A stretch of DNA of 64,000 nt from Escherichia coli (lineage in GTDB: Bacteria > Pseudomonadota > Gammaproteobacteria > Enterobacterales > Enterobacteriaceae), in the NCBI RefSeq assembly GCF_003334305.1, contig NZ_QOWS01000026.1. One strand, 5' to 3'. The notes under the pieces are model-generated. The model was not told where the DNA came from. It saw nothing but the letters and a program-made list of their open reading frames with translations, and did no database searches. The number at the start of each line of letters is the position of its first letter. The first letter of the stretch is position 1. A program made the translations under genes and the position numbers. Below, one piece after another: positions 44,508 through 63,318 of the stretch.

Positions 44508-46331
44508 TTAATCGTCTTTCGGTGCGCGGTTGGCGCGGCGACGATCGTTTTCCGTCAGGTGACGTTTACGAATACGGATAGAGGTCGGAGTCACTTCTAC
44601 TAGTTCGTCATCATCGATGAACTCCAGAGCTTGTTCCAGAGTCATGCGGATAGGCGGAACCAGAACAACGGCTTCGTCAGTACCGGAAGCACGCATGTTG
44701 GTCAGTTTCTTACCGGTCAGGCAGTTTACCGTCAGGTCGTTAGAGCGGCTATGAATACCGATAATCTGACCTTCGTAAACTTCTGCACCGTGACCGAGGA
44801 ACAGCTTACCGCGATCCTGCAGACCGAACAGCGCGAACGCGACCGCTTTACCCTGACCGTTAGAGATCAGTACGCCGTTCTGACGCTGACCCACTTCACC
44901 CGGACGTACGTCGTCGTAGTGGCTGAAGGTGGAGTACAGCAGACCAGTACCGGAAGTCATGGTCATGAACTCAGAACGGAAGCCAATCAGACCACGGCTT
45001 GGGATCACGTAGTCGAGACGTACGCGGCCTTTACCGTCTGGATTCATGTTTTTCAGGTCGCCTTTACGTTCGCCCAGCGCCTGCATTACAGAACCCTGAT
45101 GCTGTTCTTCAACGTCCAGAGTCACGTTTTCATATGGCTCTTGTTTACGACCGTCGATTTCACGGAAGATAACTTTCGGACGGGATACCGCCAGTTCGAA
45201 ACCTTCACGACGCATGTTTTCGATCAGAACAGACAGGTGTAGTTCGCCACGACCAGAAACGCGGAACGCATCAGCGTCTTCGGTTTCTTCTACGCGCAGC
45301 GCAACGTTGTGTACCAGTTCTTTGTTCAGACGATCCAGGATCTGACGAGACGTTACGAACTTACCTTCTTTACCGCAGAACGGCGAGGTGTTAACGCAGA
45401 AGAACATAGAAACGGTCGGCTCATCAACGGAGAGTGCCGGCAGCGCTTCAACGTTTTGCGTGTCGCAAACGGTGTCAGAAATGTTCAGTTCGCCAAGGCC
45501 CGTGATCGCAACGATATCGCCAGCTTCCGCCAGGTCGGTTTCGATACGTTCCAGACCGAGGTGGCCCAGCACTTTACCGACTTTCGCGTTGCGGGTTTTG
45601 CCTTCGCTATCGATGATAGTGACCTGCTGGTTCGGCTTCACTTTACCGCGCTTGATGCGGCCAATGCCGATAACGCCAACATAGCTGTTGTAATCGAGCT
45701 GAGAAATCTGCATCTGGAACGGACCGTCAAGGTCAACGTCCGGCGCAGGAACGTGGTCAACAATCGCCTGGTACAGCGGGGTCATGTCTTCCGCCATATC
45801 TTCGTGGTCCAGACCCGCGATACCGTTCAGCGCAGAAGCGTAAACGATCGGGAAGTCCAACTGCTCGTCGGTCGCGTCGAGGTTAACGAACAGATCGAAT
45901 ACCTGATCCACAACCCAATCAGGACGCGCGCCAGGGCGGTCAACTTTGTTGATAACAACAATCGGCTTCAGGCCGTAAGCAAACGCTTTTTTGGTTACGA
46001 AGCGCGTTTGCGGCATCGGGCCGTCAAATGCGTCAACCACCAGCAGCACTGAGTCTACCATGGACATTACACGTTCAACTTCACCACCGAAGTCGGCGTG
46101 CCCCGGGGTATCAACGATGTTGATACGGTAATCATTCCATTTGATAGCGGTGTTTTTCGCGAGGATGGTAATCCCACGCTCTTTCTCCAAATCGTTGGAG
46201 TCCATCACGCGCTCTTGGGTTTCGGCACGAGAGTCGAACGTACCGGATTGTTGGAGCAGCTTGTCTACCAGGGTGGTTTTACCATGGTCTACGTGCGCGA
46301 TGATGGCGATATTACGCAATTTTTCGATCAC
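44508..46331 (-). CDS. typA: Ribosome-associated translational GTPase BipA/TypA
   Basis: 607 aa ORF (M)[25 protein letters not shown]...; first codon is GTG at 46331. Confidence 0.96.
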
Positions 46332-46482
46332 AACTTTGCCTCAGGCATTAGAAATAGCGCGTTATTGTACACGGATTAATCGCACTACAAAACAGGATCA
46401 CAAACATCCTCCGCAAACAAGTATTGCAGAGTCCCTTTGTGATCGCTTTCACGGAGCATAAAAAGGGTTATCCAAAGGTCAT

Positions 46483-46573
46483 TGCACCAACATGGTGCTT
46501 AATGTTTCCATTGAAGCACTATATTGGTGCAACATTCACATCGTGGTGCAGCCCTTTTGCACGATGGTGCGCA
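46483..46573. promoter_or_regulatory. NtrC enhancer-like sites upstream of glnA
   Basis: Repeated TGCACCA/TGGTGCA dyads: tgcaccaacatggtgc (46483..46498), gcactatattggtgca (46516..46531), tggtgcagcccttttgcacgatggtgcgca (46544..46573). Confidence 0.6.
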
Positions 46574-46602
46574 TGATAACGCCTTTTAGGGGCAATTTAA
46601 AA

Positions 46603-46620
46603 GTTGGCACAGATTTCGCT
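46603..46620 (+). promoter_or_regulatory. sigma-54 promoter glnAp2
   Basis: TTGGCACAGATTTCGCT: GG and GC dinucleotides at the -24/-12 spacing, about 85 bp upstream of glnA ATG. Confidence 0.8.
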
Positions 46621-46703
46621 TTATCTTTTTTACGGCGACACGGCCAAAATAATTGCAGATTTCGTTACCACGACGACCATGACCAATCCAGGAGAGTTAA
46701 AGT

Positions 46704-48113
46704 ATGTCCGCTGAACACGTACTGACGATGCTGAACGAGCACGAAGTGAAGTTTGTTGATTTGCGCTTCACCGATACTAAAGGTAAAGAACAGCACGTCA
46801 CTATCCCTGCTCATCAGGTGAATGCTGAATTCTTCGAAGAAGGCAAAATGTTTGACGGCTCCTCGATTGGCGGCTGGAAAGGCATTAACGAGTCCGACAT
46901 GGTGCTGATGCCAGACGCATCCACCGCAGTGATTGACCCGTTCTTCGCCGACTCCACCCTGATTATCCGTTGCGACATCCTTGAACCTGGCACCCTGCAA
47001 GGCTATGACCGTGACCCGCGCTCCATTGCGAAGCGCGCCGAAGATTACCTGCGTTCCACTGGCATTGCCGACACCGTACTGTTCGGGCCAGAACCTGAAT
47101 TCTTCCTGTTCGATGACATCCGTTTCGGATCATCTATCTCCGGTTCCCACGTTGCTATCGACGATATCGAAGGCGCATGGAACTCCTCCACCCAATACGA
47201 AGGTGGTAACAAAGGTCACCGTCCGGCAGTGAAAGGCGGTTACTTCCCGGTTCCACCGGTAGACTCGGCTCAGGATATTCGTTCTGAAATGTGTCTGGTG
47301 ATGGAACAGATGGGTCTGGTGGTTGAAGCCCATCACCACGAAGTAGCGACTGCTGGTCAGAACGAAGTGGCTACCCGCTTCAATACCATGACCAAAAAAG
47401 CTGACGAAATTCAGATCTACAAATATGTTGTGCACAACGTAGCGCACCGCTTCGGTAAAACCGCGACCTTTATGCCAAAACCGATGTTCGGTGATAACGG
47501 CTCCGGTATGCACTGCCACATGTCTCTGTCTAAAAACGGCGTTAACCTGTTCGCAGGCGACAAATACGCAGGTCTGTCTGAGCAGGCGCTGTACTACATT
47601 GGCGGCGTAATCAAACACGCTAAAGCGATTAACGCCCTGGCAAACCCGACCACCAACTCTTATAAGCGTCTGGTCCCGGGCTATGAAGCACCGGTAATGC
47701 TGGCTTACTCTGCGCGTAACCGTTCTGCGTCTATCCGTATTCCGGTGGTTTCTTCTCCGAAAGCACGTCGTATCGAAGTACGTTTCCCGGATCCGGCAGC
47801 TAACCCGTACCTGTGCTTTGCTGCCCTGCTGATGGCCGGTCTTGATGGTATCAAGAACAAGATCCATCCGGGCGAAGCCATGGACAAAAACCTGTATGAC
47901 CTGCCGCCAGAAGAAGCGAAAGAGATCCCACAGGTTGCAGGCTCTCTGGAAGAAGCACTGAACGAACTGGATCTGGACCGCGAGTTCCTGAAAGCCGGTG
48001 GCGTGTTCACTGACGAAGCAATTGATGCGTACATCGCTCTGCGTCGCGAAGAAGATGACCGCGTGCGTATGACTCCGCATCCGGTAGAGTTTGAGCTGTA
48101 CTACAGCGTCTAA
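46704..48113 (+). CDS. glnA: Glutamine synthetase
   Basis: 469 aa [42 protein letters not shown]...; GGAGAG SD. Confidence 0.97.
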
Positions 48114-48346
48114 TAGTTGAAGTTGTACTACCCGGCGCAACAACGCCGGAGGTTCAAACCAGGCCCATCTGGCGTAATTGTTGCAGCCAGTTTGAACACG
48201 GACAGCGCGCAGAACCCGGAGCGTACACTGGTACGTGAGGAGTTCGAGCACTGCCCAGGTTCAAAATGGCAAATAAAATAGCCTGATGGGACTGGTTTTT
48301 AGTTGCCGTGGAAATTTCAGCCCATCTCTGCATGGGCTTTTTTCTC
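48114..48346 (+). ncRNA. glnZ: glnA 3'UTR; probable GlnZ 3'UTR-derived sRNA
   Basis: About 230 nt between glnA stop and its intrinsic terminator; assignment rests on the published location of GlnZ, not on a recognised sequence. Confidence 0.45.
48317..48346 (+). terminator. glnA terminator
   Basis: Stem agcccat / atgggct followed by tttttt. Confidence 0.7.
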
Positions 48347-48431
48347 CGTCAATTCTCTGATGCTTCGCGCTTTTTATCCGTAAAAAGCTATAATGCACTA
48401 AAATGGTGCAACCTGTTCAGGAGACTGCTTT

Positions 48432-49481
48432 ATGGCAACAGGCACGCAGCCCGATGCTGGGCAGATCCTCAACTCGCTGATTAACAGTATTTTGTTAATC
48501 GATGACAACCTGGCGATCCATTACGCCAACCCTGCCGCGCAACAACTGCTCGCCCAAAGCTCCCGCAAATTGTTTGGTACACCGTTACCGGAACTGTTGA
48601 GCTACTTCTCATTAAATATCGAGCTGATGCAAGAAAGTCTGGAGGCGGGGCAAGGTTTTACCGATAACGAAGTGACGCTGGTCATCGACGGGCGCTCGCA
48701 TATCCTTTCTGTGACGGCCCAGCGTATGCCGGACGGCATGATCCTGCTGGAGATGGCTCCGATGGATAACCAGCGCCGCTTAAGTCAGGAACAGCTACAG
48801 CACGCCCAGCAGGTTGCTGCCCGTGATTTAGTGCGCGGCCTGGCACATGAGATTAAAAATCCGCTTGGCGGTTTACGTGGCGCGGCGCAGCTGCTCAGCA
48901 AAGCGTTACCTGACCCATCACTACTCGAATATACCAAAGTGATTATCGAACAGGCGGACCGGCTGCGAAATCTGGTCGACCGTCTGTTGGGGCCGCAGCT
49001 GCCCGGTACGCGCGTTACCGAAAGTATTCACAAAGTGGCTGAACGCGTGGTAACGCTGGTGTCGATGGAACTGCCGGACAACGTGCGGTTGATTCGTGAT
49101 TACGATCCCAGCCTGCCGGAACTGGCGCACGACCCGGATCAAATTGAACAGGTCTTGCTGAATATTGTGCGCAATGCGCTACAGGCGCTGGGGCCGGAAG
49201 GCGGTGAAATCATTCTGCGTACCCGCACCGCGTTTCAACTGACCTTACACGGCGAGCGCTACCGGCTGGCGGCGCGGATTGATGTGGAAGATAACGGGCC
49301 GGGCATTCCGCCTCATTTGCAGGATACGCTGTTTTACCCGATGGTCAGCGGCCGCGAAGGTGGCACCGGGCTTGGCTTATCCATCGCTCGTAATTTGATT
49401 GATCAGCATTCAGGCAAAATTGAATTTACCAGTTGGCCAGGGCATACCGAGTTCTCGGTTTACCTGCCTATCAGGAAATAA
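48432..49481 (+). CDS. glnL: Nitrogen regulation sensor kinase NtrB
   Basis: 349 aa ORF with H-box (..[11 protein letters not shown]..) and G-box ATPase motifs. Confidence 0.96.
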
Positions 49482-49492
49482 AGGTGACGTTT

Positions 49493-50902
49493 ATGCAACG
49501 AGGGATAGTCTGGGTAGTCGATGACGATAGTTCCATCCGTTGGGTGCTTGAACGTGCGCTCGCTGGAGCGGGTTTAACCTGTACGACATTTGAGAACGGC
49601 GCGGAAGTACTGGAGGCGCTGGCGAGCAAAACGCCGGATGTGCTGCTTTCAGATATCCGTATGCCGGGAATGGACGGGCTGGCGCTGCTCAAGCAGATTA
49701 AACAGCGCCATCCAATGCTTCCGGTCATCATTATGACCGCACATTCCGATCTGGATGCTGCCGTCAGCGCCTATCAACAAGGTGCGTTTGATTATCTGCC
49801 CAAACCGTTTGATATCGACGAAGCAGTGGCGCTGGTTGAGCGCGCTATCAGTCATTACCAGGAACAGCAGCAGCCGCGTAATATTCAGCTTAACGGCCCA
49901 ACGACCGATATCATCGGCGAAGCGCCAGCCATGCAGGACGTGTTCCGTATTATCGGTCGGCTTTCGCGTTCTTCTATTAGCGTGCTGATTAACGGCGAAT
50001 CCGGCACCGGTAAAGAACTGGTCGCTCATGCCCTGCATCGCCACAGTCCGCGCGCCAAAGCGCCGTTTATCGCGCTGAATATGGCAGCTATCCCAAAAGA
50101 TTTGATCGAATCAGAACTGTTTGGCCACGAGAAAGGCGCGTTTACTGGCGCGAATACCATTCGTCAGGGGCGTTTTGAACAGGCCGATGGCGGTACATTA
50201 TTCCTCGACGAAATTGGTGATATGCCGCTGGATGTGCAGACGCGTTTGCTGCGCGTGCTGGCAGACGGTCAGTTTTACCGCGTTGGCGGCTATGCGCCGG
50301 TGAAAGTGGATGTGCGGATTATCGCTGCCACTCACCAGAATCTCGAACAGCGAGTGCAGGAAGGTAAGTTCCGTGAGGATCTGTTCCACCGCCTGAACGT
50401 TATCCGCGTTCATCTGCCGCCGCTGCGCGAACGTCGGGAAGATATTCCCCGTCTGGCGCGCCATTTTTTACAGGTTGCCGCGCGCGAACTGGGCGTAGAA
50501 GCGAAGTTACTGCATCCGGAAACCGAAGCTGCTCTGACGCGTCTGGCGTGGCCAGGCAACGTGCGCCAGCTGGAAAACACCTGCCGCTGGCTAACGGTGA
50601 TGGCCGCCGGGCAGGAAGTGTTGATTCAGGATTTGCCCGGCGAACTGTTTGAATCAACGGTTGCGGAGAGTACTTCGCAAATGCAACCGGACAGCTGGGC
50701 GACGCTTCTTGCGCAGTGGGCAGACAGAGCGCTGCGTTCCGGTCATCAAAATCTGCTTTCCGAAGCGCAGCCAGAGCTGGAGCGGACGTTACTGACGACC
50801 GCGTTGCGACATACGCAGGGGCATAAACAGGAAGCGGCGCGGCTACTCGGCTGGGGCCGCAACACCCTGACGCGTAAGTTAAAAGAGCTGGGGATGGAGT
50901 GA
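49493..50902 (+). CDS. glnG: Nitrogen regulation response regulator NtrC
   Basis: 469 aa from ATG 49493 ([25 protein letters not shown]...); receiver domain, AAA+ GESGTGKE and GAFTGA motifs, C-terminal HTH. Confidence 0.96.
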
Positions 50903-51013
50903 TTCACAGCTTGTGTGTAAAGATTGATTATTGAGCGCAAATTGCTGGTATTTTACGCTTTACTGTTCCGATAAGTTCAGTATGATCTTGCCCGGAAAAC
51001 GGGGAGAGTCATT

Positions 51014-51124
51014 ATGCTGGAATCAATAATTAATCTGGTATCGAGTGGCGCAGTTGACAGCCACACACCGCAAACTGCCGTTGCTGCCGTGCTGTGTGCC
51101 GCAATGATTGGGCTGTTTAGTTGA
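51014..51124 (+). CDS. yshB: Small membrane protein YshB (36 aa)
   Basis: MLESIINLVSSGAVDSHTPQTAVAAVLCAAMIGLFS preceded by GGGGAGAG SD; matches the small ORF annotated between glnG and hemN in K-12. Confidence 0.7.
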   Translation: MLESIINLVSSGAVDSHTPQTAVAAVLCAAMIGLFS

Positions 51125-51158
51125 GTTTCAGATTGCTGATGAAGTGCTCTTTGTTCAT

Positions 51159-51246
51159 GCCGGATGCGGCGTGAACGCCTTATCCGGCCTACAAAAGCAA
51201 TATTTTCAACAGGTTTTGTAGGCCTGATAAGCGTAGCGCATCAGGC
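51159..51246. repeat. REP/BIME (two inverted REP units)
   Basis: gccggatgcggcgtgaacgccttatccggcctac and gtaggcctgataagcgtagcgcatcaggc. Confidence 0.85.
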
Positions 51247-51313
51247 AATCTTGTTCTCAGCACATTGATGGCGCTTTCGTTTTCTACTTTGTAAACGAAG
51301 CGCCATTCACTAT

Positions 51314-52687
51314 TTAAATCACCCGTGAGAACTGCTGCATCCGCGCTTTCTGGCGCAGATAGGTATCAAAGCACATGCAAATGTTGCGGATCAGCAAGCG
51401 ACCTTTCGCCGTCACCTGTATTCCCTTCTCATCCACATCCACCAGCCCATCTTTTGCTAACGGGGCGAGCAGCTTGAGATCTTCCGCAAAGTAATCAGCG
51501 AAGTGCAAATCCCACTGTTTCTCAATAGGGGCGTAATCCAGACGGAAGTTGCAGATGAGCGACTTAATCACATCGCGGCGAATACAGTCATCACGCGTTA
51601 GCGCAATACCACGCCACAGCGCATTGCCTTGTTCATCCACTTGCTGATAGTACTGCTTCAACTCTTTCTGGTTCTGCGCGTAGCAGTCGCCAATCATGCT
51701 GATGGCGGAAACGCCCATCCCCAGCAGATCGGTATCGCCCTGAGTGGTGTAGCCCTGGAAGTTACGATGCAGCACGCCTTCACGCTGGGCCACCGCCAGC
51801 TCGTCATCCGGACGGGCAAAGTGATCCATACCGATAAACTGATAGCCCGATTGCGTCAGGAAGGCGATGGTTTCCTGCAGGATATCGAGTTTTTGCTGCG
51901 GACTCGGCAGGTCAGCATCTTTGATTTTGCGCTGAGCAGCAAAAATGGTCGGCAGATGCGCGTAGTTAAAGACACTCAGACGATCGGGGTTCAGCTCCGC
52001 CACACGTTTCAGGGTAAAGGCGAAACTCTCCGGCGTCTGTTTCGGCAGGCCGTAAATCAGGTCGATGTTGGTGGAGGTAAAACCAATCTCACGCGCATGG
52101 TTAAGCAGTGCAAAGATGAACTCTTCATCCTGCTCGCGGTTAACCAGACGTTGCACTTCTTTGTTGAAGTCCTGCACGCCCATGCTCAGGCGATTAAAGC
52201 CTTCGGCGCGTAAATGATCGAGTACATCCAGTTCGATTTCCCGCGGATCGACTTCGATCGAAATCTCCGCATCGGCATTGAACTGGAAGTTTTCGCGCAG
52301 CAGCTTCATCAGGCGGCTGATTTGCGCTTTATTCAGATACGTCGGCGTTCCGCCGCCCCAGTGCAATTGGCTGACGTGACGCCCGGCGAACAGCGGTGCA
52401 CGATGGACGATTTCTTGCTCCAGCGCGTCCAGATACTGATCGGCCTTGTGCTGCTGGCGAGTAACAATCTTATTGCAACCGCAGAAGTAACAAAGCTTAT
52501 GGCAGAACGGGATATGTACGTAGAGAGATAATGGACGCTCAGGATAGCGCGCCACGGCTTGTAAAAACGCCTGTTCGCCGAAGTCTTCTGAAAACTCCAG
52601 CGCGGTCGGGTACGAGGTGTATCGTGGCCCGGAATAGTTATATTTCTGGATCAGGGCCAGATCCCAGTCGATTTGCTGTACAGACAT
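51314..52687 (-). CDS. hemN: Oxygen-independent coproporphyrinogen III oxidase (radical SAM)
   Basis: 457 aa from ATG 52687 (MSVQQIDWDLALIQKYNYSGPRYTSYPTALEF...), radical-SAM CxxxCxxC (..FCHKLCYFCGC..). Confidence 0.95.
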   Translation of the reverse strand: MSVQQIDWDLALIQKYNYSGPRYTSYPTALEFSEDFGEQAFLQAVARYPERPLSLYVHIPFCHKLCYFCGCNKIVTRQQHKADQYLDALEQEIVHRAPLFAGRHVSQLHWGGGTPTYLNKAQISRLMKLLRENFQFNADAEISIEVDPREIELDVLDHLRAEGFNRLSMGVQDFNKEVQRLVNREQDEEFIFALLNHAREIGFTSTNIDLIYGLPKQTPESFAFTLKRVAELNPDRLSVFNYAHLPTIFAAQRKIKDADLPSPQQKLDILQETIAFLTQSGYQFIGMDHFARPDDELAVAQREGVLHRNFQGYTTQGDTDLLGMGVSAISMIGDCYAQNQKELKQYYQQVDEQGNALWRGIALTRDDCIRRDVIKSLICNFRLDYAPIEKQWDLHFADYFAEDLKLLAPLAKDGLVDVDEKGIQVTAKGRLLIRNICMCFDTYLRQKARMQQFSRVI

Positions 52688-52875
52688 GCTCACTCCTTCC
52701 GATGGCGTCTCTGGCGGCTACGGCGTACCGGCGGATGCCCGTTTCGGGTCATCAGCCGGTTGCGCAGCCACTTTTGTCGCCGCGACAACCGCTGTAGTTT
52801 AACGAATAACCACACCAGATAACATATAACCGGAAGGGTTATCAGCAGAACGGGAAGGCCCACGGCGGCAATCCG

Positions 52876-53385
52876 TTAGTTGCCCCGCAGCAGACGCATC
52901 ATGTCTTCTTGCTTCTCGTCTTCTTCCTCTTCTTCGTCATCGTCATAAGAGAGGCCGAGTTTCTGCATCAACTCATCAATACGATCCAGTTTAGCATCCA
53001 CCCAGGATTGCTCTTCGGCACTCAGGGTTTCGCCTGCTTCCAGACGTTCCAGCAGCGCATCCAGACGCTCATCCGTTTCCAGTAATTCCAACTCCGCCTG
53101 CGGTGAAAGCATAGGTTTCTCACTCTTCGGTTTGTGCTGTTTGGTGACTTTTTCAGTCACGCCCAATGGAATAGGGGTTTTACTGCCAATACGTGGATCT
53201 TTTGGTGCGTTCTGGCCTTTGCTGCCTGACGTGGTGTTTCCGCCCGCTGCGCGGCTGCCCGGCGCATGACCACGACGTTTTTTCTGACGCTTGCGATCAC
53301 GAGCTTCCTGATCCAGCTCCTCGCGTGTTTTTCGACGCGCTTTTGCATGACCTTTGCTGCGTGAGTTTGAAGATGATGGTTTCAT
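52876..53385 (-). CDS. yihI: Der GTPase-activating protein YihI
   Basis: 169 aa from ATG 53385 ([27 protein letters not shown]...), basic N-terminus and acidic C-terminus. Confidence 0.9.
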
Positions 53386-53451
53386 AATGGTTCGTCTTTT
53401 AGCCGTTTTATTCAGTATAGATTTGCGGCGGAATCTAACAGAAAGCAAGCA

Positions 53452-53696
53452 AAGAAAAAAGGCGACAGATTACTCTGTCGCCTTTTTTCCTGACTCATAA
53501 CCCTTAACGGGTCTTACAATCCTTGCAGGCCGCCAACACACCCTGTTTTTCCTTTAGCCGGAACAATCCGTGTTGATTCCATTTCCGTTTAATTACGTCT
53601 CCGGACGTTTGTCTTCCTGACAATCCTCTGTCTTCGCCTCCTGGCGCTCCTGACCCTCATCCTGAGTCATTGTTCCTGTTAGCGTCCTCGCTCTAT
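53452..53696 (-). ncRNA. csrC: CsrC small RNA (CsrA-sequestering)
   Basis: Minus-strand region dense in GGA/AGGA motifs ending in the hairpin ggcgacagagtaatctgtcgcc plus U-tract, 67 bp upstream of yihI; ends are approximate. Confidence 0.75.
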
Positions 53697-53966
53697 GGGT
53701 GCTACTTTACGCCTTTGCTTTAAACAAACAATCAACCGCCATCAGTATTTGCACATTTTCAGAGTTTTATATAAAAGCAATTCACTGATTTATATAGCTT
53801 ATTTGACATGCATCGCAGAATTTTCTCTGCTATTTCGCATAAAGACTATCGGCAATGTCTCACAAAGCGTATGGCTTTTACTTACAACGCTCACGCCGAA
53901 AAATCCGCCTTTTATTATGGTTCAGGTATAATCGCCACAAAGCTTTGACTGACGGAGACGACCGCT

Positions 53967-54599
53967 TTGACTAATTTGAATTATCAACAGACGCATTTTG
54001 TGATGAGTGCGCCTGATATTCGCCACCTACCTTCCGATACCGGAATTGAAGTGGCTTTTGCAGGCCGTTCCAACGCAGGTAAATCCAGCGCGCTGAACAC
54101 GCTGACTAACCAGAAAAGCCTGGCTCGTACCTCAAAAACCCCAGGGCGCACCCAGCTTATCAACCTGTTTGAAGTGGCTGACGGCAAGCGTCTGGTTGAC
54201 TTGCCTGGGTACGGTTATGCGGAAGTCCCGGAAGAGATGAAGCGCAAATGGCAGCGTGCGCTCGGCGAATACCTCGAAAAACGTCAGAGCCTGCAAGGTC
54301 TGGTGGTGCTAATGGATATTCGCCATCCGCTGAAAGATTTGGATCAGCAGATGATTGAGTGGGCGGTAGACAGCAATATCGCCGTTCTGGTGCTGCTGAC
54401 CAAAGCGGACAAACTGGCAAGCGGCGCACGTAAAGCGCAATTGAATATGGTGCGTGAAGCTGTACTGGCGTTTAACGGTGATGTGCAGGTTGAAACGTTT
54501 TCTTCGTTGAAGAAACAAGGCGTGGACAAGCTGCGGCAGAAACTGGATACCTGGTTTAGCGAGATGCAGCCTGTAGAAGAAACGCAGGACGGCGAATAA
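53967..54599 (+). CDS. engB: Ribosome biogenesis GTPase EngB (YihA)
   Basis: 210 aa ORF (M)[21 protein letters not shown]...GRSNAGKSS...; first codon is TTG at 53967 with GGAG 8 nt upstream; the ATG at 54003 is an alternative. Confidence 0.9.
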
Positions 54600-54620
54600 T
54601 TTTCTTGCCTTAATGCTTGT

Positions 54621-54699
54621 GCCGGATGTGGCGTATCCGGCCCGTAAATTCAATAGATTACAATTCTACCGTTGGCCTGATAAACATAGCGCATCAGGC
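54621..54699. repeat. REP-like palindromic units
   Basis: gccggatgtggcgtatccggc and ggcctgataaacatagcgcatcaggc. Confidence 0.5.
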
Positions 54700-54724
54700 A
54701 TTACGGATCTTTTCTTTCGCCCAA

Positions 54725-54833
54725 TAAAAAACGCCCCAGTCATTACTGACTGGGGCGGCTAAAATATTCAGCCAAATCCGATTACGTGAAGTAAAAGGTC
54801 TGAAAGATAGAACATCTTACCTCTGTACCCTAC
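54725..54833 (-). ncRNA. spf: Spot 42 small RNA
   Basis: Minus-strand sequence GTAGGGTACAGAGGTAAGATGTTCTATCTTTCAGACC...GCCGCCCCAGTCAGTAATGACTGGGGCGTTTTTTATT matches Spot 42 including its terminator; lies between engB and polA as in K-12. Confidence 0.88.
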
Positions 54834-54980
54834 GCGACTAACTTTACTCTTTTTTGTTCAGTTCAGAAAGCACTTTTTGTAATTTTTTTTCAGTTGTTGC
54901 ATAGGAATTTCTAATAGCCATCACAAAACGTGACAGCTTATGTTGCTTACTTACGAAAAAAGGGCATGTTCAGGCGAATC

Positions 54981-57767
54981 TTAGTGCGCCTGATCCCAGT
55001 TTTCGCCACTCCCCACTTCCACCAGCAACGGCACATCCAGACGGGTACAGTTTTCCATCAGTTGATGAATCTGCTTCGCGACGGCATCAACATCATCTTT
55101 ATGAACTTCAAATACCAGTTCATCGTGTACCTGCATGATCATACGTACACGCGGTTGCTCAGCCTGTAACCACGCATCAACGGCAATCATCGCCCGTTTG
55201 ATAATGTCGGCGGCGGTTCCCTGCATTGGCGCGTTAATGGCTGCACGTTCAGCCGCTGCACGACGAGCACCATTGCTGGATTTGATATCCGGCAGATACA
55301 GACGGCGTCCGTCCAGCGTTTCAACGTAGCCCTGCTCTTTCGCCTGAGCACGGGTGCGTTCCATATACTCCAGCACGCCAGGGTAGCGTTCGAAGTAAAG
55401 GTCCATGTACTTCTGCGCTTCTTTACGTGGAATGTTCAATTGCCGCGCCAGACCGAAAGCACTCATGCCATAAATCAGACCAAAGTTGATCGCTTTCGCG
55501 CTACGGCGTTGCTCGCTGGTGACGGTTTCCAGTGGCAAACCAAACACTTCTGCCGCCGTTGCCCGGTGGATATCTTTTCCTTCCGCGAATGCGGTCAGCA
55601 AGCCTTTGTCACGCGAGAGATGCGCCATAATGCGCAGTTCAATCTGCGAGTAGTCCGCTGAGACAATCACATAATCCTCTGGCGCAATAAACGCCTGGCG
55701 GATACGACGACCTTCTTCATTACGCACCGGAATGTTTTGCAGGTTAGGATCGGTTGACGATAAACGTCCCGTTGCAGTTACTGCCTGGTGATAAGAGGTA
55801 TGCACACGCCCGGTTTTCGGGTTGATCATCAGCGGCAGCTTGTCGGTGTAAGTCGACTTTAGCTTCGCCAGACCACGATACTCCAGAATCACTTTTGGCA
55901 ACGGATAGTCCAGCGCCAGTTCTTCCAGTACCTCTTCCGACGTTGACGGCGCGCCACCCGGCGTTTTCTTCAGCGGTTTAATGCCCTGTTTTTCAAACAG
56001 AATGGTTTGTAACTGCTTGGTGGAAGAAAGGTTAAATTCCTCACCTGCAATTTCATGCGCTTTCTTTTCCAGCTCAGCCAGACGAAGGGTGAGCTCTTCA
56101 GAATGATTGTGCAGCACTTTCGGATCGATCTTCACACCGTTACGTTCAATGCGTGAAAGCACCGGCACCAGCGGCATTTCGATATTCTCGAAGACGTTCA
56201 ACGGCCCTTTGTGTTTTTGCAGATCTGGCCACATTTTCAGATGCAACTGCAAGGTGACATCTGCATCTTCGGCGGCGTAACGTCCGGCTTCTTCGAGGGC
56301 AATCTGGTTAAAGGTCAGTTGATTTTTGCCTTTACCCGCAATCTCTTCAAAAGTGATGGTTTTGTGCTTCAACCAACGTTCCGCGAGGCTGTCCATATCG
56401 TGACGCCCGGCAACGCTATTGAGAATGTAGGACTCCAGCATGGTATCAAACGCAATCCCACGCAGCTCAATGCCGTAATTCGCCAGAATACCGCGATCGT
56501 ATTTCAGGTTTTGCCCGACCTTCAGCGCCTTTTCATCTTCCAGCAGCGGTTTTAGCAACTCGAGTGCACGCTCGCGAGAGATTTGATCGGGCGCGTCAAG
56601 ATAATCATGAGCAACCGGAATATATGCCGCTACGCCTGGCTCGATAGCAAAAGAAAGCCCGACCAGGTTAGCAGAGATGTTATCAAGGCTGTCGGTTTCG
56701 GTATCAAATGCAAATACCGGCGCTTTTTCCAGCTTCGCAATCCACGCTTTCAGTGTTTCTTCATCAAGGATGGTGACGTAGTTGTCATAAGAAATCACCG
56801 TTGCCGTCACTTCTGGTGCTTCGTCTGCAACACTGGTTTCCTGTGGCTTCGCGGCTGGTTTTGCCCCTTTGGCCTGTAACCATTTGCCCGCTTCGACATC
56901 AGCAGTCCAGCGTTTGAACTCATACTTTTTGAACAGCCCCAACAACTCTTCCGCTGCCGGTTGCTGCACTTCCAGTTGTTCACAGGTCAGCTCCAGTTCA
57001 ACGTCGGTTTTAATCGTCGCCAGCTGGTATGAGAGATAAGCAACTTCTTTGTTTTGCTCGAGCTTCGCTGCCATTGTTTTCGCGCCACGGAAGCTCAACC
57101 CAGCAATTTTTTCTGGCTCGGCATACAGCGTATCCAGCCCGCCCAGACCTTGCAGCAATGCCTGCGCGGTTTTTTCACCGACGCCCGGTACGCCAGGAAT
57201 GTTATCGGAGGAGTCACCCATCAGCGCCAGGAAATCGATGATCAGTTCTGGCGGCACGCCGTACTTATTCACCACCTCTTCCGGTCCGAGGATGGTATTC
57301 GTCATGGTATTGATAAGCGTAATATTTGGCGTCACCAGCTGCGCCATATCTTTATCGCCAGTGCTGATCAGCACCGGACGCCCGGCTTTTTCGGCTTCGC
57401 GCGCCAGAGTACCGATAACGTCGTCCGCTTCTACGCCAGAAACCGCCAGCAGCGGCAGTCCCATCGCTTTAACCATCGCGTGCAGGGGTTCGATTTGTGC
57501 TCGCAGATCGTTCGGCATTGGCGGGCGATGTGATTTGTAATGTTCAAACAGTTCATCACGAAAGGTTTTTCCCTTGGCGTCAAAGACCACCGCTGCATGC
57601 GTCGGTTTATATTGCATGATCAGACTGCGCAGCATGTTGAGGACACCATACATCGCACCGGTCGGCTCGCCTGCGCTGTTAGTCAGCGGGGGAAACGCGT
57701 GATATGCGCGATAAAGATAAGATGAACCATCTACAAGGATAAGTGGATTTTGGGGGATCTGAACCAT
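54981..57767 (-). CDS. polA: DNA polymerase I
   Basis: 928 aa [45 protein letters not shown]... Confidence 0.98.
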
Positions 57768-57890
57768 AATGTCCGTGCCTGTTTATCAGATTATGGGTAA
57801 AGGATGCCACAGACAGGATGAAAACATGAGTTTTTCACCGCTTTTCGTGAAAATCTTTTGTAGATCTTCTGGATCGCTCGCAAATCGTCA

Positions 57891-57899
57891 TGTGGATAA
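57891..57899. promoter_or_regulatory. DnaA box in polA promoter region
   Basis: tgtggataa is an exact match to the DnaA box consensus TTATCCACA on the other strand; a second near-match tgtggatag at 58032..58040. Confidence 0.55.
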
Positions 57900-58130
57900 C
57901 TTTGTGCATAAATTATTTACATCGCTTTTAATTTATTATCATGCTTTTTACAGCATGATGTTTGTCTTTGTTTTTCATGCAGTTAAAAATAAAGCCATCC
58001 CTAATAATTGAGATAATGGGATTTTTTCTAATGTGGATAGATATGAATTATTTTTCTCCTTAAGGATCATCCGTTATTTGGGTCGTTTTCTGCTAAAATC
58101 TGCGCCTTGCGCTTCTTTAGCGCACTGTCT

Positions 58131-59063
58131 ATGGCTAACCTTTTGAATAAATTCATTATGACGAGAATACTCGCTGCGATAACCCTTTTGCTGAGTATCG
58201 TATTGACCATTTTGGTCACTATTTTTTGTTCCGTCCCGATCATCATTGCCGGGATTGTAAAACTATTGCTACCTGTGCCAGTCATTTGGCGAAAGGTTTC
58301 GCGTTTTTGTGATTTTATGATGTATTGCTGGTGTGAAGGTCTGGCGGTATTACTGCATCTGAACCCACACCTGCAATGGGAAGTTCACGGGCTGGAAGGG
58401 TTAAGTAAGAAGAACTGGTATCTGCTTATTTGTAACCACCGTAGTTGGGCAGATATTGTCGTACTATGCGTGCTGTTTCGTAAGCACATTCCGATGAATA
58501 AATATTTCCTCAAGCAACAGCTGGCCTGGGTGCCATTTCTTGGCCTGGCGTGCTGGGCGCTGGATATGCCGTTTATGAAGCGTTATTCCCGCGCTTATTT
58601 ATTACGTCATCCGGAGCGACGTGGTAAAGATGTTGAAACCACTCGGCGTTCTTGTGAAAAGTTTCGCCTGCATCCCACCACCATTGTCAATTTCGTTGAA
58701 GGCTCCCGTTTCACGCAAGAAAAACATCAGCAAACCCACTCCACTTTTCAAAACTTGTTGCCACCAAAGGCGGCAGGCATTGCGATGGCGCTAAATGTAC
58801 TGGGTAAACAATTCGATAAACTGCTTAATGTTACGCTGTGTTATCCGGACAATAACCGTCAGCCGTTCTTCGATATGTTAAGCGGTAAACTGACGCGAAT
58901 TGTCGTTCATGTGGATTTACAGCCTATTGCCGATGAGTTACATGGCGACTACATCAATGACAAAAGCTTTAAGCGCCATTTTCAGCAATGGCTGAACTCA
59001 CTGTGGCAGGAAAAAGACCGACTTCTGACGTCGTTGATGTCATCACAGCGGCAGGACAAGTAA
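58131..59063 (+). CDS. yihG: PlsC-like acyltransferase YihG
   Basis: 310 aa from ATG 58131 ([21 protein letters not shown]...), acyltransferase motif ..[12 protein letters not shown].. Confidence 0.9.
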
Positions 59064-59067
59064 ATTT

Positions 59068-59097
59068 TGCTCGCCTCTGAATGAGCAGAGGCGAGTG
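59068..59097. terminator. Bidirectional terminator hairpin between convergent yihG and yihF
   Basis: Inverted repeat ctcgcctctg / cagaggcgag with AT-rich flanks. Confidence 0.55.
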
Positions 59098-59103
59098 AGT
59101 ATT

Positions 59104-60534
59104 TTAATGAACAAAACGTCCGGCACGAGACATAAATTCTTCTTCGCTCATCTCCTGTCCGTTAAAAACAACTTTACCCGGTGTATAACGCAGTTGCAGC
59201 GAGGCGGTATTGTTGTCAATCGTGATTAACTGAAACATCTGACCTAAGGTCATCATCCCGCTGATTTGTTTATCAGCCCGCTTTTGCGCTTTTTCCGCAT
59301 CCATTCCTTCAGATAAATTAAGCTGTTTTGCGGTTTCTGTGGCGACATTAAGCGGTAACTTCACATCAAAATTGAGCGATTTAATATCTTTGTTTGTGGA
59401 TGATGAAGATTTGGCTGGGTCGGCAATACTGATATCCAGATTGGCATTTAGTTCGCCGAGTGCGTTCTTCCATTTTACCGGTTGTTTAATGGTCGGCTCA
59501 CTTTTTTGTAATAACGGTAAATACTCTTTGAACAATGCAGCATTCACTTCTTGCAGAGCAACTTCATCGTTTGCTAACTCAGGGTGTGCAGCAAGCTGCT
59601 TCTGCATTGCAATGTTATACTGGATGATAAATTGGCGCACCGCTGAGGGATCAATAGATTCAGCAATCAATGACCACTCACCACTACCGAGTTGCTGATT
59701 CCCTTTTGTTAACTTATCAAGTTCGTAGGTCAGATTGACATTGATATAATCTTTGTCTTTAACGCGATCCAGCCTGGTTTTTGCAACGAAAGCATCGATT
59801 TGGGCAACGTCTTCCCCGTGATTGATAATGTTAATCTGATTAAATTTCGACTCGCTTTCACCAACCGGAAATTTCTTTTCTTCTAATCGCGCCAGAGAAT
59901 CAATGGTAAAACTTTTTGCCGTTACTTTGTTCATTGGTGATAATTGCAGAACAATATCTTCGACTTTGCCTTCAATATCCAGGTTAGACAATGAACTACC
60001 ATCACCATTAAAAGTAAACTGGCCCTCACCAAAAGAAAACTTTCCATACTCTGCAGGGGCAACATCTAATGTCGTAGAGAATGAGCCACCAAACGCGAAT
60101 CGCAATGTCGCTTCCACGGGCGATTTATTTTTCGCGGCGATAAATAGCGGTTGTGTCAGTTCATTATTCACTAAGTTCACTTTTGCCGCTGCCAGTGCTG
60201 GGATGACATTACCATGCATTAACATTGTGATGGGCAACGGACCGTGCTCAACATCCACATCAAATACAACTTTCTGGCCTGGCTTGATATTGAGATCGGG
60301 TGCACCGTTATCGAATGTCATTTGCATTTGAAAACGGGAATTAAAAAAGCCTTTGTCAAAATTTTGATAACTTAACGTCATATCGTAGGCATGTTCACCT
60401 TTCTTTTTAGCATCGTTAAAATCTTTAATAAATTTTTCGACACCAGGCTGAATTTGTGTACCTGTGTACCATGTGCCACCACCCCAGATTACGGCTAACG
60501 CAACAATAACACCTGTAGCTGACTTACGTATCAT
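59104..60534 (-). CDS. yihF: DUF945-family protein YihF
   Basis: 476 aa from ATG 60534 (MIRKSATGVIVALAVIWGGGTWYTG...), N-terminal signal/anchor. Confidence 0.88.
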   Translation of the reverse strand: MIRKSATGVIVALAVIWGGGTWYTGTQIQPGVEKFIKDFNDAKKKGEHAYDMTLSYQNFDKGFFNSRFQMQMTFDNGAPDLNIKPGQKVVFDVDVEHGPLPITMLMHGNVIPALAAAKVNLVNNELTQPLFIAAKNKSPVEATLRFAFGGSFSTTLDVAPAEYGKFSFGEGQFTFNGDGSSLSNLDIEGKVEDIVLQLSPMNKVTAKSFTIDSLARLEEKKFPVGESESKFNQINIINHGEDVAQIDAFVAKTRLDRVKDKDYINVNLTYELDKLTKGNQQLGSGEWSLIAESIDPSAVRQFIIQYNIAMQKQLAAHPELANDEVALQEVNAALFKEYLPLLQKSEPTIKQPVKWKNALGELNANLDISIADPAKSSSSTNKDIKSLNFDVKLPLNVATETAKQLNLSEGMDAEKAQKRADKQISGMMTLGQMFQLITIDNNTASLQLRYTPGKVVFNGQEMSEEEFMSRAGRFVH

Positions 60535-60639
60535 ATAAATATTCCCTGATAAAACAGCAAAACTTTGAATATCCACTTATGCTGAAATAATGTCCAGCGG
60601 CAGGATGCATTATCAGAATGTATTTATATTTATTAAATA

Positions 60640-60670
60640 ATAAAAAAAGCCCGTGAATATTCACGGGCTT
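60640..60670 (-). terminator. dsbA terminator
   Basis: Stem agcccgtgaatattcacgggct followed on minus strand by a T-run, just downstream of dsbA stop. Confidence 0.7.
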
Positions 60671-60688
60671 TATGTAATTTACATTTAA

Positions 60689-61315
60689 TTATTTTTTCTC
60701 GGACAGATATTTCACTGTATCAGCATACTGCTGAACAAAAACATCCATATTGCTGGTATCCATGCCCTGCGGATTCAGCTGATATTTACCGTTAACAAAC
60801 ATCGCCGGAACACCACGCAATTGCACGTCAGCTGCAGCTTTTTCCTGCTGAGCGACCAGAGATTTCACCACGAAGCTGTTCCACGCCGCGTCGTACTCTT
60901 CACCTTTAATACCTGCGTTGATAAATACATCGCGGATATCAGATGCTGAACGAATGGTCTGGGTTTTCTGTACGCCTTCAAACAGCGGAACAGTCACTTT
61001 GTCTTCCACGCCCAGCGCCATCGCCACAGCCCATGCCTGAGTCAGATCTTTGCCCAGGTCACCACCCATGAAGTTGACGTGGTATTTAGTCATCTTCACG
61101 CCTTCCGGCAGTTTTTTCTTCACATTATCAGAAATATGCAGAACTTCTTCAAACTGATAGCAGTGCGGACAGAAGAAAGAGAAAAACTCCAGCACTTGCG
61201 GCGCGCCAGCTACCGGTTTTTCCAGGGTAGTGTACTGTTTACCATCTTCATACTGCGCCGCCGATGCGCTAAACGCTAAAACTAAACCAGCCAGCGCCAG
61301 CCAAATCTTTTTCAT
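60689..61315 (-). CDS. dsbA: Periplasmic thiol:disulfide oxidoreductase
   Basis: 208 aa ORF with signal peptide and active site CPHC. Confidence 0.97.
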
Positions 61316-61331
61316 GATCTACTCTCTCCGA

Positions 61332-62318
61332 TTAATACATAGGTGTTAATTGTAAAGGGGGTTCTTGTAGAACTTTTGCCTGTTCTATAAAAGTCGCCGT
61401 TTGTCGCAGCCAGTAATCTTCCCCGGTTAACCACGGGAAATTTTTCGGGAACGCGGGATCAGCCCAACGCCGCATTAGCCAGGCAAGATAATAAACCAAA
61501 CGCATGGCGCGTAAAGGTTCAATCAGTCCGATTTCAGCGGTGTCGAACTCGCTAAATTCTTCATAAGCTTCAATAATAGTTTCCAGTTGCATCCGCTGCT
61601 CGGCTTTATCGCCATTGAGCAACATCCACAAATCCTGAATAGCTGGACCATTACGTGCATCATCCAGATCAACAAACATTGGACCATCGCGCCAGAGAAT
61701 ATTCCCGGCGTGGCAGTCTCCATGTAGCCGCAGAACGGTGAAGTCTTCCCGCCAGTGTGCTGTAACGGCGGCGATCAGCTCATCTGTCGCTTTCAGGAAT
61801 GCCGCTTTCAACCCGGAAGGCATCAGTGTAGCGTCCTCAAACAGCTTGCGTGGCTCAATGAGATATTCATTCAGACCGATGGTCGGGCGATGGATAAAAA
61901 GCTGTTTGCGCCCCGTCTGGTGCATACGCCCTAAATAACGCCCAACCGCTTCCATCTGATCGATATTATCAGCTTCGAACTGGCGACCACCGACGCTTGG
62001 AAAAACAGCGAAATAAAATCCCTGATGATTCAATAAAGTCTGACCGTTAAAGGCCACAGGTGCTGCGACCGGAACTTCATCATTTACCAACTGCAACGCA
62101 AATTGATGTTCTTCGAGGATTTGATCGGCTGTCCAACGTTCAGGGCGATAAAATTTGACGACAAAACGTCGACGATCTTCGTCCTGAAATTGATAGACAC
62201 GGTTTTCATAGCTGTTAAGCGGGGTAAGACCGGAATCCACCCGGATCCCTTGCTCAAATAGAGCATCCATGATGGTATCCGGGTGTAGTGTCTGGAAAGT
62301 AAAAGCGCTGTTGTTCAT
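61332..62318 (-). CDS. srkA: Stress response Ser/Thr kinase SrkA (YihE)
   Basis: 328 aa ORF MNNSAFTFQTLHPDTIMDALFEQGIRVDSG..., kinase catalytic motif HGDCHAGN. Confidence 0.93.
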   Translation of the reverse strand: MNNSAFTFQTLHPDTIMDALFEQGIRVDSGLTPLNSYENRVYQFQDEDRRRFVVKFYRPERWTADQILEEHQFALQLVNDEVPVAAPVAFNGQTLLNHQGFYFAVFPSVGGRQFEADNIDQMEAVGRYLGRMHQTGRKQLFIHRPTIGLNEYLIEPRKLFEDATLMPSGLKAAFLKATDELIAAVTAHWREDFTVLRLHGDCHAGNILWRDGPMFVDLDDARNGPAIQDLWMLLNGDKAEQRMQLETIIEAYEEFSEFDTAEIGLIEPLRAMRLVYYLAWLMRRWADPAFPKNFPWLTGEDYWLRQTATFIEQAKVLQEPPLQLTPMY

Positions 62319-62394
62319 CCCATCATCCGGAAAACATTACGAATGATGAAGGATATCATTTCACGATGATTTTGGTGGCACCGCTTACAAGCTT

Positions 62395-62664
62395 TTACTC
62401 TTTAATTACGCCACGAGCGCGTAACAGCGCCGTTTTGAAGTCTTCTTCATAATCTTTCTGCAAACCCGGGATCACCGCATCTTTCGCGGAATCACGCATT
62501 TTCAGGTGATAGATCAGAATGTCATCCGTCAAATCCGCCAGTTCGCCGTCAAAACCTGACTCTTTCGCCAGTTTCTGCAAAAATTGCAACAGGTTAAGGT
62601 CTGGCTCTTTTTGCCAGGCTGGCTGGAGGAGTTCAATAACTTCATTCAGACGTTTACATTTCAT
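62395..62664 (-). CDS. yihD: Small protein YihD (DUF1040)
   Basis: 89 aa from ATG 62664 ([29 protein letters not shown]...) with AAGGAG SD. Confidence 0.88.
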
Positions 62665-62733
62665 AGTAATGCTCCTTACTCTTGAGACAGACACGTTAGC
62701 AGGGTCAATCCCACAATAAAAGAGGCGATATCG

Positions 62734-63318
62734 GTGAATCTGATGACGACGATAACAGGCGTTGTGCTGGCAGGCGGTAAAGCCAGACGAATGGGCGGCG
62801 TAGATAAAGGATTGCTTGAATTAAACGGCAAACCATTATGGCAACATGTCGCTGACGCGCTTATGACGCAGCTCTCTCACGTCGTGGTTAATGCCAATCG
62901 CCATCAGGAAATCTATCAGGCAAGCGGTCTGAAAGTGATTGAAGATTCACTGGCGGATTACCCAGGCCCTCTGGCAGGAATGCTTTCAGTAATGCAGCAG
63001 GAAGCAGGCGAGTGGTTTTTGTTTTGTCCGTGCGATACTCCTTATATTCCCGAGGATTTAGCAGCCCGGCTTAATCATCAGCGCAAAGATGCGCCTGTCG
63101 TGTGGGTCCACGACGGTGAACGCGATCACCCGACTATTGCTCTGGTAAACCGCGCAATTGAGCCTTTATTACTGGAATATCTGCAAGCAGGAGAACGCCG
63201 GGTAATGGCATTTATGCGTCTGGCTGGCGGTCATGCGGTTGATTTCAGCGATAATAAAGATGCATTTATTAACGTGAATACGCCAGAGGAGCTTGCCCGA
63301 TGGCAGGAAAAACGATGA
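62734..63318 (+). CDS. mobA: Molybdenum cofactor guanylyltransferase
   Basis: 194 aa ORF (M)[27 protein letters not shown]...; first codon is GTG with AGAGG SD. Confidence 0.93.

Follow-up and report, generated by a model that had tools for sequence, protein, structure and literature searches.

GTG and TTG start codons of five genes and over-extended open reading frames in a 64,000-nucleotide window of the Escherichia coli chromosome

Five genes of the window (the whole stretch of 64,000 nucleotides analysed here) start at GTG or TTG, namely typA/bipA, yihA/engB, mobA, rhaR and fdhD. These starts are real, ordinary for bacteria and already part of the curated K-12 annotation, and they are almost certainly explained by ordinary GUG/UUG initiation in housekeeping and regulatory genes, together with a start of yihG that most likely lies at 58158. 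In contrast, the upstream GTG and TTG codons given to yihP, yihO, hemN, frvX and yihG in an open reading frame list (ORF list) are longest-ORF artefacts. An earlier note on this DNA had named four of the five genes, and every codon was found where it had been placed (typA GTG at 46331 and rhaR GTG at 4815 on the minus strand, yihA TTG at 53967 and mobA GTG at 62734 on the plus strand), but its list was incomplete, as fdhD with GTG at 17166 on the minus strand was omitted. The span 44508-63318 to which it assigned the observation does contain typA, hemN, yihA, yihG and mobA, whereas rhaR, frvX, yihP and yihO are located outside that span. The five start codons are as follows.

4813..4815, minus strand, rhaR GTG start, 282 aa
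17164..17166, minus strand, fdhD GTG start, 277 aa
46329..46331, minus strand, typA/bipA GTG start, 607 aa
53967..53969, plus strand, yihA/engB TTG start, 210 aa
62734..62736, plus strand, mobA GTG start, 194 aa

The window belongs to the E. coli chromosome; strain A7 matches it at 100% identity, and in K-12 the collinear region lies at about 4.04-4.10 Mb. Its 57 complete genes are annotated with 52 ATG, 4 GTG and 1 TTG starts, and none of these 57 CDS starts is a non-canonical one of the infC or pcnB type (AUU, CUG or AUA). Genome-wide, ATG, GTG and TTG account for 83, 14 and 3% of E. coli start codons. The non-ATG share of the window is 5/57 or 8.8%, against about 17% genome-wide (binomial P(X>=5)=0.97, P(X<=5)=0.06), and an enrichment of non-ATG starts was rejected because the share is below the genome-wide rate. 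Compared with canonical initiation in E. coli at GUG (about 14% of genes) and UUG (about 3%), the codon, the spacing to the Shine-Dalgarno sequence (SD), conservation and annotation all match, and the window frequency of 9%, somewhat below the genome average, is the sole difference.

Candidate starts were compared by SD duplex energy (kcal/mol) and spacing. Conservation was analyzed in yihA-neighbourhood loci from 80 Enterobacteriaceae species, which served for typA, hemN, yihA, yihG and mobA. The two independent annotations, RefSeq/PGAP and curated K-12, agree on the start codon of all five genes, and in four of them the SD stands 7-9 nt upstream, within the 5-10 nt expected of a canonical site, with duplex energies of -5.6 to -7.2 kcal/mol for typA, yihA, mobA and rhaR.

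4824-4827, minus strand, rhaR SD GAGG, 8 nt spacing
46339..46342, minus strand, typA SD GAGG, 7 nt spacing
53954..53957, plus strand, yihA SD GGAG, 9 nt spacing
62721..62725, plus strand, mobA SD AGAGG, 8 nt spacing

The claim that typA, yihA, mobA and rhaR initiate at GTG or TTG is thus borne out by annotation, SD position and conservation, and for yihA also by profiling and an N-terminal peptide. In the papers examined, direct initiation mapping was found for yihA alone (published tetracycline-inhibited ribosome profiling, TetRP, and COFRADIC); for typA, mobA, rhaR and fdhD the evidence consists of annotation, SD position (the SD being weak in fdhD) and, for the first three, conservation. 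The text and supplements of the TRAINSPOTTER N-terminomics paper gave no match for these genes.

The SD of typA, yihA, mobA and rhaR would place the 30S subunit at the start codon, the SD of fdhD being weak. That fMet-tRNA can pair with GUG and UUG despite a mismatch at the first position is established knowledge; the initiator tRNA would read the five codons in this manner, and the proteins would still start with Met. According to the literature, GUG and UUG are several-fold weaker than AUG (10-100% of its efficiency, or an 8- to 12-fold decrease), so that they may act as built-in throttles on expression. The AUU start of infC is likewise a weak start codon discriminated against by IF3. However, the codons found here are standard GUG and UUG, and autoregulation through IF3 is described for infC.

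The typA ORF opens just 3 codons before the GTG. Ahead of the P-loop AHVDHGKT (residues 12-19), the sole other start-type codon, the TTG of codon 5, lacks an SD, and an in-frame ATG first appears at codon 43, past the P-loop. The GTG was present in 53/53 Enterobacteriaceae species, but this tells little about the codon itself, since the whole leader is almost invariant (positions -75 to -1 are conserved at 91-99% in 54 sequences). A promoter consensus scan of the glnA-typA spacer found sites no more numerous than in shuffled sequences and does not account for the conserved typA leader, and a literature search for N-terminal sequencing of BipA/TypA returned nothing usable.

For yihA, the start codon is TTG in 73 of 79 species, GTG in 6 and ATG in none, and GGAG is kept at a constant distance from it in the species alignment. 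In published TetRP data the TTG has signals of 181/190/153, against about 0 for the ATG of the earlier annotation, and an N-terminal peptide was detected (PMC4909307, Table S2). The EngB structure 1PUI (210 aa) begins at the TTG codon, and the alignment with B. subtilis YsxC begins at YihA query residue 9, upstream of the former start at codon 13. This former start has no SD and no TetRP signal, and 18/79 species have ATG at this codon, whereas 61/79 encode Thr, Leu or Ile there; it was therefore rejected.

54003..54005, plus strand, rejected former yihA ATG start of the 2006 annotation, codon 13, no SD

In mobA, the MobA structure 1FR9 (194 aa) likewise begins at the GTG codon, and AAGAGG is conserved upstream. 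Of 70 species, about 38 have GTG at the start that follows this SD, about 13 have TTG and about 18 have ATG. An ATG at codon 4 (62743) was considered and rejected as the true start, although it may contribute some dual initiation in E. coli. Its distance to the conserved SD is 17 nt. Citrobacter, Salmonella and Enterobacter retain the GTG but not this ATG; the codon is ATG in 3/19, and Asp in Citrobacter and Salmonella.

The rhaR GTG has the best SD among the candidate starts (-7.2). In 31 metagenome orthologue contigs, the start position is GTG in 23, ATG in 5 and TTG in 2, and an in-frame TGA lies 3-4 codons upstream in most orthologues not close to E. coli. The N-termini of RhaR and its paralogue RhaS are at most 3 residues apart in the alignment. 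Among 10,643 E. coli genomes, rhaR starts almost exclusively at non-ATG codons (PMC11445065). The same paper describes non-ATG starts of carbohydrate regulators such as lacI (GTG), from which rhaR differs in that it sometimes has ATG or TTG in other genera. The longer reading of rhaR was rejected for its weaker SD, its overlap with the rhaS 3' end and an extension without counterpart in RhaS, and an open frame up to this ATG is confined to E. coli and its immediate relatives.

4903..4905, minus strand, rejected upstream rhaR ATG, 30 codons upstream (312-aa reading), SD -4.8

A literature search for N-terminal sequencing of RhaR found nothing usable. As for fdhD, the SD is weak (-2.4 kcal/mol) and the start was assessed on its own sequence: 2 codons before it the frame is closed by a stop, a GTG at +11 is the sole alternative, and no ATG occurs before codon 55. 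By these comparisons, a conserved in-frame ATG able to replace the GTG or TTG appears to be absent for typA, fdhD, yihA, mobA and rhaR.

The case of yihG is different, as the doubtful start there is an ATG. Three candidates were compared.

58107..58109, plus strand, yihG TTG of the ORF list, an artefact, no SD, start-type codon in 12/63 species
58131..58133, plus strand, yihG annotated ATG, doubtful, 310 aa, no SD, ATG in 15/63 species
58158..58160, plus strand, yihG conserved ATG, probable real start, would give 301 aa, ATG in 63/63 species

The real start is probably ATG 58158, which would shorten the database version by 9 codons at the N-terminus, because of its 63/63 conservation and the published profiling, in which the +27 ATG was described as 'multiple, our data was major' (PMC4909307). 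Moreover, the frame from ATG 58131 is broken in Salmonella, and 26/63 species have no in-frame start upstream of 58158. The TetRP re-annotation of Nakahigashi et al. 2016 covers genes of the window directly and shifts starts in mobB (-15), yihG (+27), yiiD/fabY (+48), yihV (+33) and yihA (TTG, -36 nt) (PMC4909307). Its proposals for yihG and fabY were not adopted in the K-12 record, and the cross-species data presented here independently back the one for yihG.

We also considered whether the weak codons are not neutral but held by selection, as throttles or IF3-sensitive control points, above all in EngB, BipA and RhaR. This possibility is, in our view, less likely than not. None of the 79 species has ATG as the yihA start, although variation is seen at third codon positions (78% major allele) and in the leader (56%), and the first base of the start does change, from T to G in 6 species; furthermore, nearly every E. 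coli rhaR has a non-ATG start, and sugar regulators are enriched for such starts (PMC11445065). However, the species are phylogenetically related, and the 79 loci amount to far fewer independent events; mobA and rhaR swap freely among GTG, TTG and ATG across genera, and the typA codon shares its invariance with the entire leader. The narrower version, in which the yihA TTG and typA GTG would be selected for low GTPase levels or IF3-sensitive synthesis, is in our view unlikely. If true, such starts would tie the synthesis of ribosome-assembly GTPases to initiation capacity via IF3, or keep their levels low.

Two N-terminal proteoforms made by dual initiation (yihG at 58131 and 58158, mobA at GTG and ATG codon 4, or rhaR at 4905 and 4815) are quite improbable. 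Early work on RhaR reportedly described two polypeptides. The TetRP study assigns yihG, like yihV, to the class 'multiple', one replicate showing signal at both yihG sites, and it reports two-site signal for 22 genes (PMC4909307). On the other hand, the upstream ATGs of yihG and rhaR are unconserved beyond Escherichia and Citrobacter, so that any additional isoform would be restricted to a lineage and would probably lack a function.

Finally, it is very hard to believe that the non-ATG starts are partly annotation errors with a nearby ATG as the true start: all three ATGs do exist (yihA codon 13, mobA codon 4 and the one 30 codons upstream in rhaR), the 2006 K-12 annotation used the one in yihA and the rhaR frame is open to 4905, but the yihA ATG is replaced in 61/79 species while the TTG is strong in TetRP, the mobA ATG stands 17 nt from the SD and is missing in three genera, and in rhaR the TGA interrupts the frame in most orthologues beyond the closest relatives. 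Ordinary GUG/UUG initiation is hence the reading we retain. Beyond annotation hygiene, little is at stake, as non-ATG starts are textbook knowledge and already curated; nevertheless, the start site should be minded in cloning, N-terminal tagging and the reading of signal or transmembrane segments of these genes.

The second part of the earlier note concerned the ORF list, which was said to begin five genes at upstream GTG or TTG codons although a downstream ATG has a better SD. The listed starts were confirmed as GTG 37511 (yihP), GTG 38966 (yihO), GTG 52693 (hemN), TTG 12266 (frvX) and TTG 58107 (yihG). They arise because the rule takes the 'first ATG/GTG/TTG after a stop'. The SD energies agree with a better downstream ATG in yihP, yihO, hemN and frvX, but not in yihG, where the values are +1.3 at the annotated and +1.8 at the listed start and an SD is present at neither codon. 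The starts of the four genes are the following ATG codons.

12272..12274, plus strand, frvX ATG start, SD AGGAG at 12260-12264, K-12 identical
37544..37546, plus strand, yihP ATG start, SD energy -8.4
38972..38974, plus strand, yihO ATG start, SD AAGGAG at 38961-38966, K-12 identical
52685..52687, minus strand, hemN ATG start, SD AAGGAG at 52693-52698

In three of these genes the listed codon touches or adjoins the SD itself. The hemN GTG (52691-52693) overlaps the SD, whose AAGGAG ends on the G of the GTG; the yihO GTG (38966-38968) shares its first base with the end of the SD; and the frvX TTG (12266-12268) sits 1 nt past it. The SD energies of the annotated versus listed starts are -8.8 vs -5.5 kcal/mol for yihO, -8.3 vs -3.5 for hemN and -6.6 vs -1.9 for frvX. 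In yihP, the SD energy is +2.0 at the listed GTG 37511 and -5.5 at the former K-12 ATG 37523; this gene was not expressed in the TetRP experiment and gave no signal there (PMC4909307). The hemN ATG is kept in 77/77 species, and at the listed position 14 of them have GTA and 6 have TAA, while the starts of yihP, yihO and frvX were judged by SD and annotation only.

The same over-extension was observed in nine more genes, which are frvB, rhaA, glnG, yihI, yihF, ompL, yihX, csqR and an alpha/beta hydrolase gene. Longest-ORF tracks thus over-extend about 1/4 of the genes in the window, and a frequent cause is a GTG or TTG within or beside the SD. Apart from these, the K-12 start differs from the PGAP start in fabY, yihR and yiiF.

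The region 44000-64000 is found in nearly all of 5,426 complete E. coli genomes and shows 100% identity to the chromosome of E. coli strain A7 (NZ_CP028767.1), which the entire window matches base for base; K-12 MG1655 is collinear with it at about 4.040-4.103 Mb, in reversed orientation. We transferred the RefSeq (PGAP) annotation of A7 and the curated K-12 annotation to window coordinates. The start codon is ATG in 52 of the 57 complete annotated CDS, GTG in 4 and TTG in 1, a non-ATG share of 8.8%. Genome-wide, E. coli starts are about 83% ATG, 14% GTG and 3% TTG (Hecht et al., preprint 10.1101/063800), and these 57 CDS show no excess of non-ATG starts (5 seen vs about 9.7 expected; P(X>=5) = 0.97, P(X<=5) = 0.06). 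The five genes are as follows, with lengths on which PGAP and K-12 agree:

46331, minus strand, GTG start of typA (bipA), 607 aa
53967, plus strand, TTG start of yihA (engB), 210 aa
62734, plus strand, GTG start of mobA, 194 aa
4815, minus strand, GTG start of rhaR, 282 aa
17166, minus strand, GTG start of fdhD

The first four had been proposed in the earlier note and are present exactly where it placed them, in both annotations; its list omitted fdhD, and the span 44508-63318 to which it assigned nine named genes holds five of them, the other four lying outside. These non-ATG starts are real, ordinary and already known.

The TTG of yihA has a Shine-Dalgarno (SD) sequence, GGAG, 9 nt upstream (-6.6 kcal/mol), and none of the other start candidates has one. 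Of 79 Enterobacteriaceae species, 73 have TTG at this position and 6 have GTG. Codon 13, the start in the 2006 K-12 annotation, is an ATG in no more than 18 of these species, the remaining 61 having Thr, Leu or Ile there, and codon 4, TTG in E. coli, is mostly TGG or CTG in other species. Tetracycline-inhibited ribosome profiling (TetRP) had already mapped this start in 2016, relocating it 36 nt upstream to TTG 53967, with signals of 181/190/153 vs 0/0.36/0 at the old ATG and with detection of an N-terminal peptide (Nakahigashi et al. 2016, PMC4909307, Table S2). Moreover, the solved structure of EngB (1PUI) is of the 210-aa form, and the alignment with B. subtilis YsxC begins at residue 9, upstream of M13.

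For mobA, the SD context AAAAGAGGCGATA is almost invariant between genera, and the start 7-9 nt past it is GTG in about 38 of 70 species, ATG in about 18 (Klebsiella, Raoultella, Pantoea) and TTG in about 13. Citrobacter, Salmonella and Enterobacter retain the GTG but lack the ATG that E. coli has at codon 4, and MobA crystal structures start from the residue that the GTG encodes.

In E. coli the rhaR frame contains no stop in the 77 codons before GTG 4815, and its most distant upstream start-type codon, also a GTG, lies 58 codons away. ATG 4905, 30 codons upstream, overlaps rhaS and corresponds to the old 312-aa reading; its SD (-4.8 kcal/mol) is weaker than that of GTG 4815, the best among the candidates (-7.2). 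A DNA-pattern scan of metagenome contigs yielded 33 orthologous loci, in which the aligned start is GTG in 23, ATG in 5 and TTG in 2. Outside the close relatives of E. coli, most orthologues have a TGA in frame within the SD (TGAGG), 3-4 codons upstream, which confines the N-terminal extension to E. coli and its nearest relatives. If RhaR begins at the GTG, its N-terminus differs from that of its paralogue RhaS by just 3 residues. The gene is almost exclusively non-ATG among 10,643 E. coli genomes and was already listed among non-ATG sugar regulators in a 2024 study (PMC11445065).

The typA frame opens just three codons before its GTG, which has a GAGG 7 nt upstream; the sole other start-type codon before the P-loop AHVDHGKT (residues 12-19) is TTG codon 5, lacking an SD, and the earliest in-frame ATG is codon 43. 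All 53 aligned Enterobacteriaceae species loci have GTG here. The codon's conservation is not separately informative, because the leader from -75 to -1 is conserved throughout (91-99% in 54 sequences), above nearby synonymous sites. A consensus promoter scan did not account for this conservation; the leader might form a long, regulated 5' UTR or give rise to an sRNA. In the upstream region 46332-46520 (-), the Rfam sRNA family ES222 matches the typA strand at 46413-46520 (82-189 nt before the start). At the other end of the gene, a match to Rfam STnc370 at 44455-44523 (-; 54.9 vs a threshold of 54 bits) overlaps the stop codon and 3' end and is probably a terminator or a 3'-UTR-derived sRNA. 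In fdhD, a stop lies two codons before GTG 17166, the alternatives are limited to this weak-SD GTG or one 11 codons downstream, and no ATG occurs before codon 55; as read from the sequence, a non-ATG start is unavoidable.

The starts of typA, yihA, mobA, rhaR and fdhD are very probably standard SD-led GUG/UUG initiation sites. Such codons are read by the initiator tRNA, so that the first residue is Met. All five match canonical GUG/UUG initiation and are already in the curated annotation; none is non-canonical in the sense of the AUU of infC. In reporter assays, GUG/UUG initiation ranges from 10 to 100% of that at AUG (10.1101/063800), and PMC11445065 cites an 8- to 12-fold decrease; this weakness would therefore limit expression. 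Selection may possibly hold the weak start codons: none of the 79 species has ATG at the yihA start although adjoining synonymous and leader positions vary, a sequence pattern that hints at a constraint on the start codon. However, those species are related to one another, and from genus to genus the starts of mobA and rhaR vary between GTG, TTG and ATG.

The ORF list, a set of mechanical longest-ORF calls, places five further starts upstream of the annotated ones.

Starts in the ORF list and in the annotations
yihP: ORF list GTG 37511; PGAP and K-12 ATG 37544
yihO: ORF list GTG 38966; PGAP and K-12 ATG 38972
hemN: ORF list GTG 52693; PGAP and K-12 ATG 52687
frvX: ORF list TTG 12266; PGAP and K-12 ATG 12272
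yihG: ORF list TTG 58107; PGAP and K-12 ATG 58131

For the first four, the preference of the earlier note for the downstream ATG was borne out by SD position and hemN conservation, the upstream calls being artefacts of a 'first ATG/GTG/TTG after a stop' rule. The upstream GTG of hemN, like that of yihO, shares the final base of the SD (AAGGAG), leaving zero spacing; in frvX the TTG lies 1 nt past AGGAG, and yihP GTG 37511 has no SD at all. The hemN ATG is kept in 77 of 77 species, the upstream codon being GTA in 14 and a TAA stop in 6. No start-site data supporting the ORF-list starts were found, yihP being without TetRP signal; similar over-extension affects nine other genes of the window.

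For yihG, the better SD claimed for the downstream ATG does not exist, since neither TTG 58107 (+1.8 kcal/mol) nor ATG 58131 (+1.3) has one. The annotated ATG 58131 (310 aa) is conserved in 15 of 63 species, and in Salmonella the corresponding stretch is out of frame and contains a stop. ATG 58158 (MTRILA...), nine codons downstream, is present in 63/63 species, and in 26 of them it is the earliest in-frame start. The TetRP study (PMC4909307) independently enters yihG at +27 nt with the remark 'multiple; our data was major'. From conservation and profiling together, the real start is most likely 58158, giving 301 aa, and the database start is probably 9 codons too far upstream; some initiation at 58131 may occur in E. 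coli. In two Salmonella enterica loci (subsp. diarizonae and arizonae), the ATG matching the annotated start would open a 4-codon mini-ORF (ATG GCT AAC TTT TGA) just before the conserved start, in a stretch whose nucleotides are conserved and whose codons are not.

The sole novelty is a small-scale annotation correction, in yihG and in fabY (yiiD; 27239-27289, minus strand). For fabY, K-12 places the start at ATG 27289 (329 aa), in overlap with the dtd stop, and PGAP at ATG 27241 (313 aa); TetRP gives the +48 nt ATG (MYHLRV...) as a 'new site', in agreement with PGAP (PMC4909307). The annotations also differ for yihR (34337-34363, plus strand; K-12 ATG 34337, 308 aa, SD -10.3 kcal/mol, vs PGAP ATG 34361, 300 aa, SD -4.0) and yiiF (23429-23455, minus strand; K-12 72 aa from ATG 23431, PGAP 80 aa from 23455). 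YiiG has 351 aa in K-12 and 346 aa in the window strain, because of a stop directly before ATG 16180 (-).

An in-frame TGA in fdoG (17360-20410, plus strand; named fdnG by PGAP) makes the ORF list split it into 17360-17947 and 17996-20410; the selenocysteine insertion element SECIS_3 (Rfam, 84 bits) at 17942-18000 spans the point where the first of these ORFs ends, in keeping with formate dehydrogenase O being a selenoprotein. The interval between fabY and yiiE (24497-26236) holds three genes with no K-12 annotation at the same position:

25328-26236, plus strand, alpha/beta hydrolase of hormone-sensitive-lipase type, below NCBIfam cut-offs
24788-25099, minus strand, 103-aa hypothetical protein, no NCBIfam match
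24497-24787, minus strand, NadS/MqsA-like HTH protein, directly adjoining the 103-aa protein

The two minus-strand genes resemble a toxin-antitoxin pair. K-12 annotates the 15-aa small protein SpfP within Spot 42 (54725-54843, minus strand) and the sRNA GlnZ in the glnA 3' UTR (about 48117-48310, plus strand; no Rfam match in the window), both missing from the A7 PGAP record. A PGAP pseudogene at 53504-53670 (-; 'hypothetical protein, frameshifted; internal stop') lies wholly within the CsrC sRNA (Rfam RF00084, 53443-53696, 279 bits) and is almost certainly a spurious CDS on a non-coding RNA. The rhaA-rhaD spacer (8739-8912) contains a REP-derived naRNA4 element (match 8796-8866, minus strand) and is 174 nt long vs about 450 nt in K-12, which suggests REP copy-number variation between strains.
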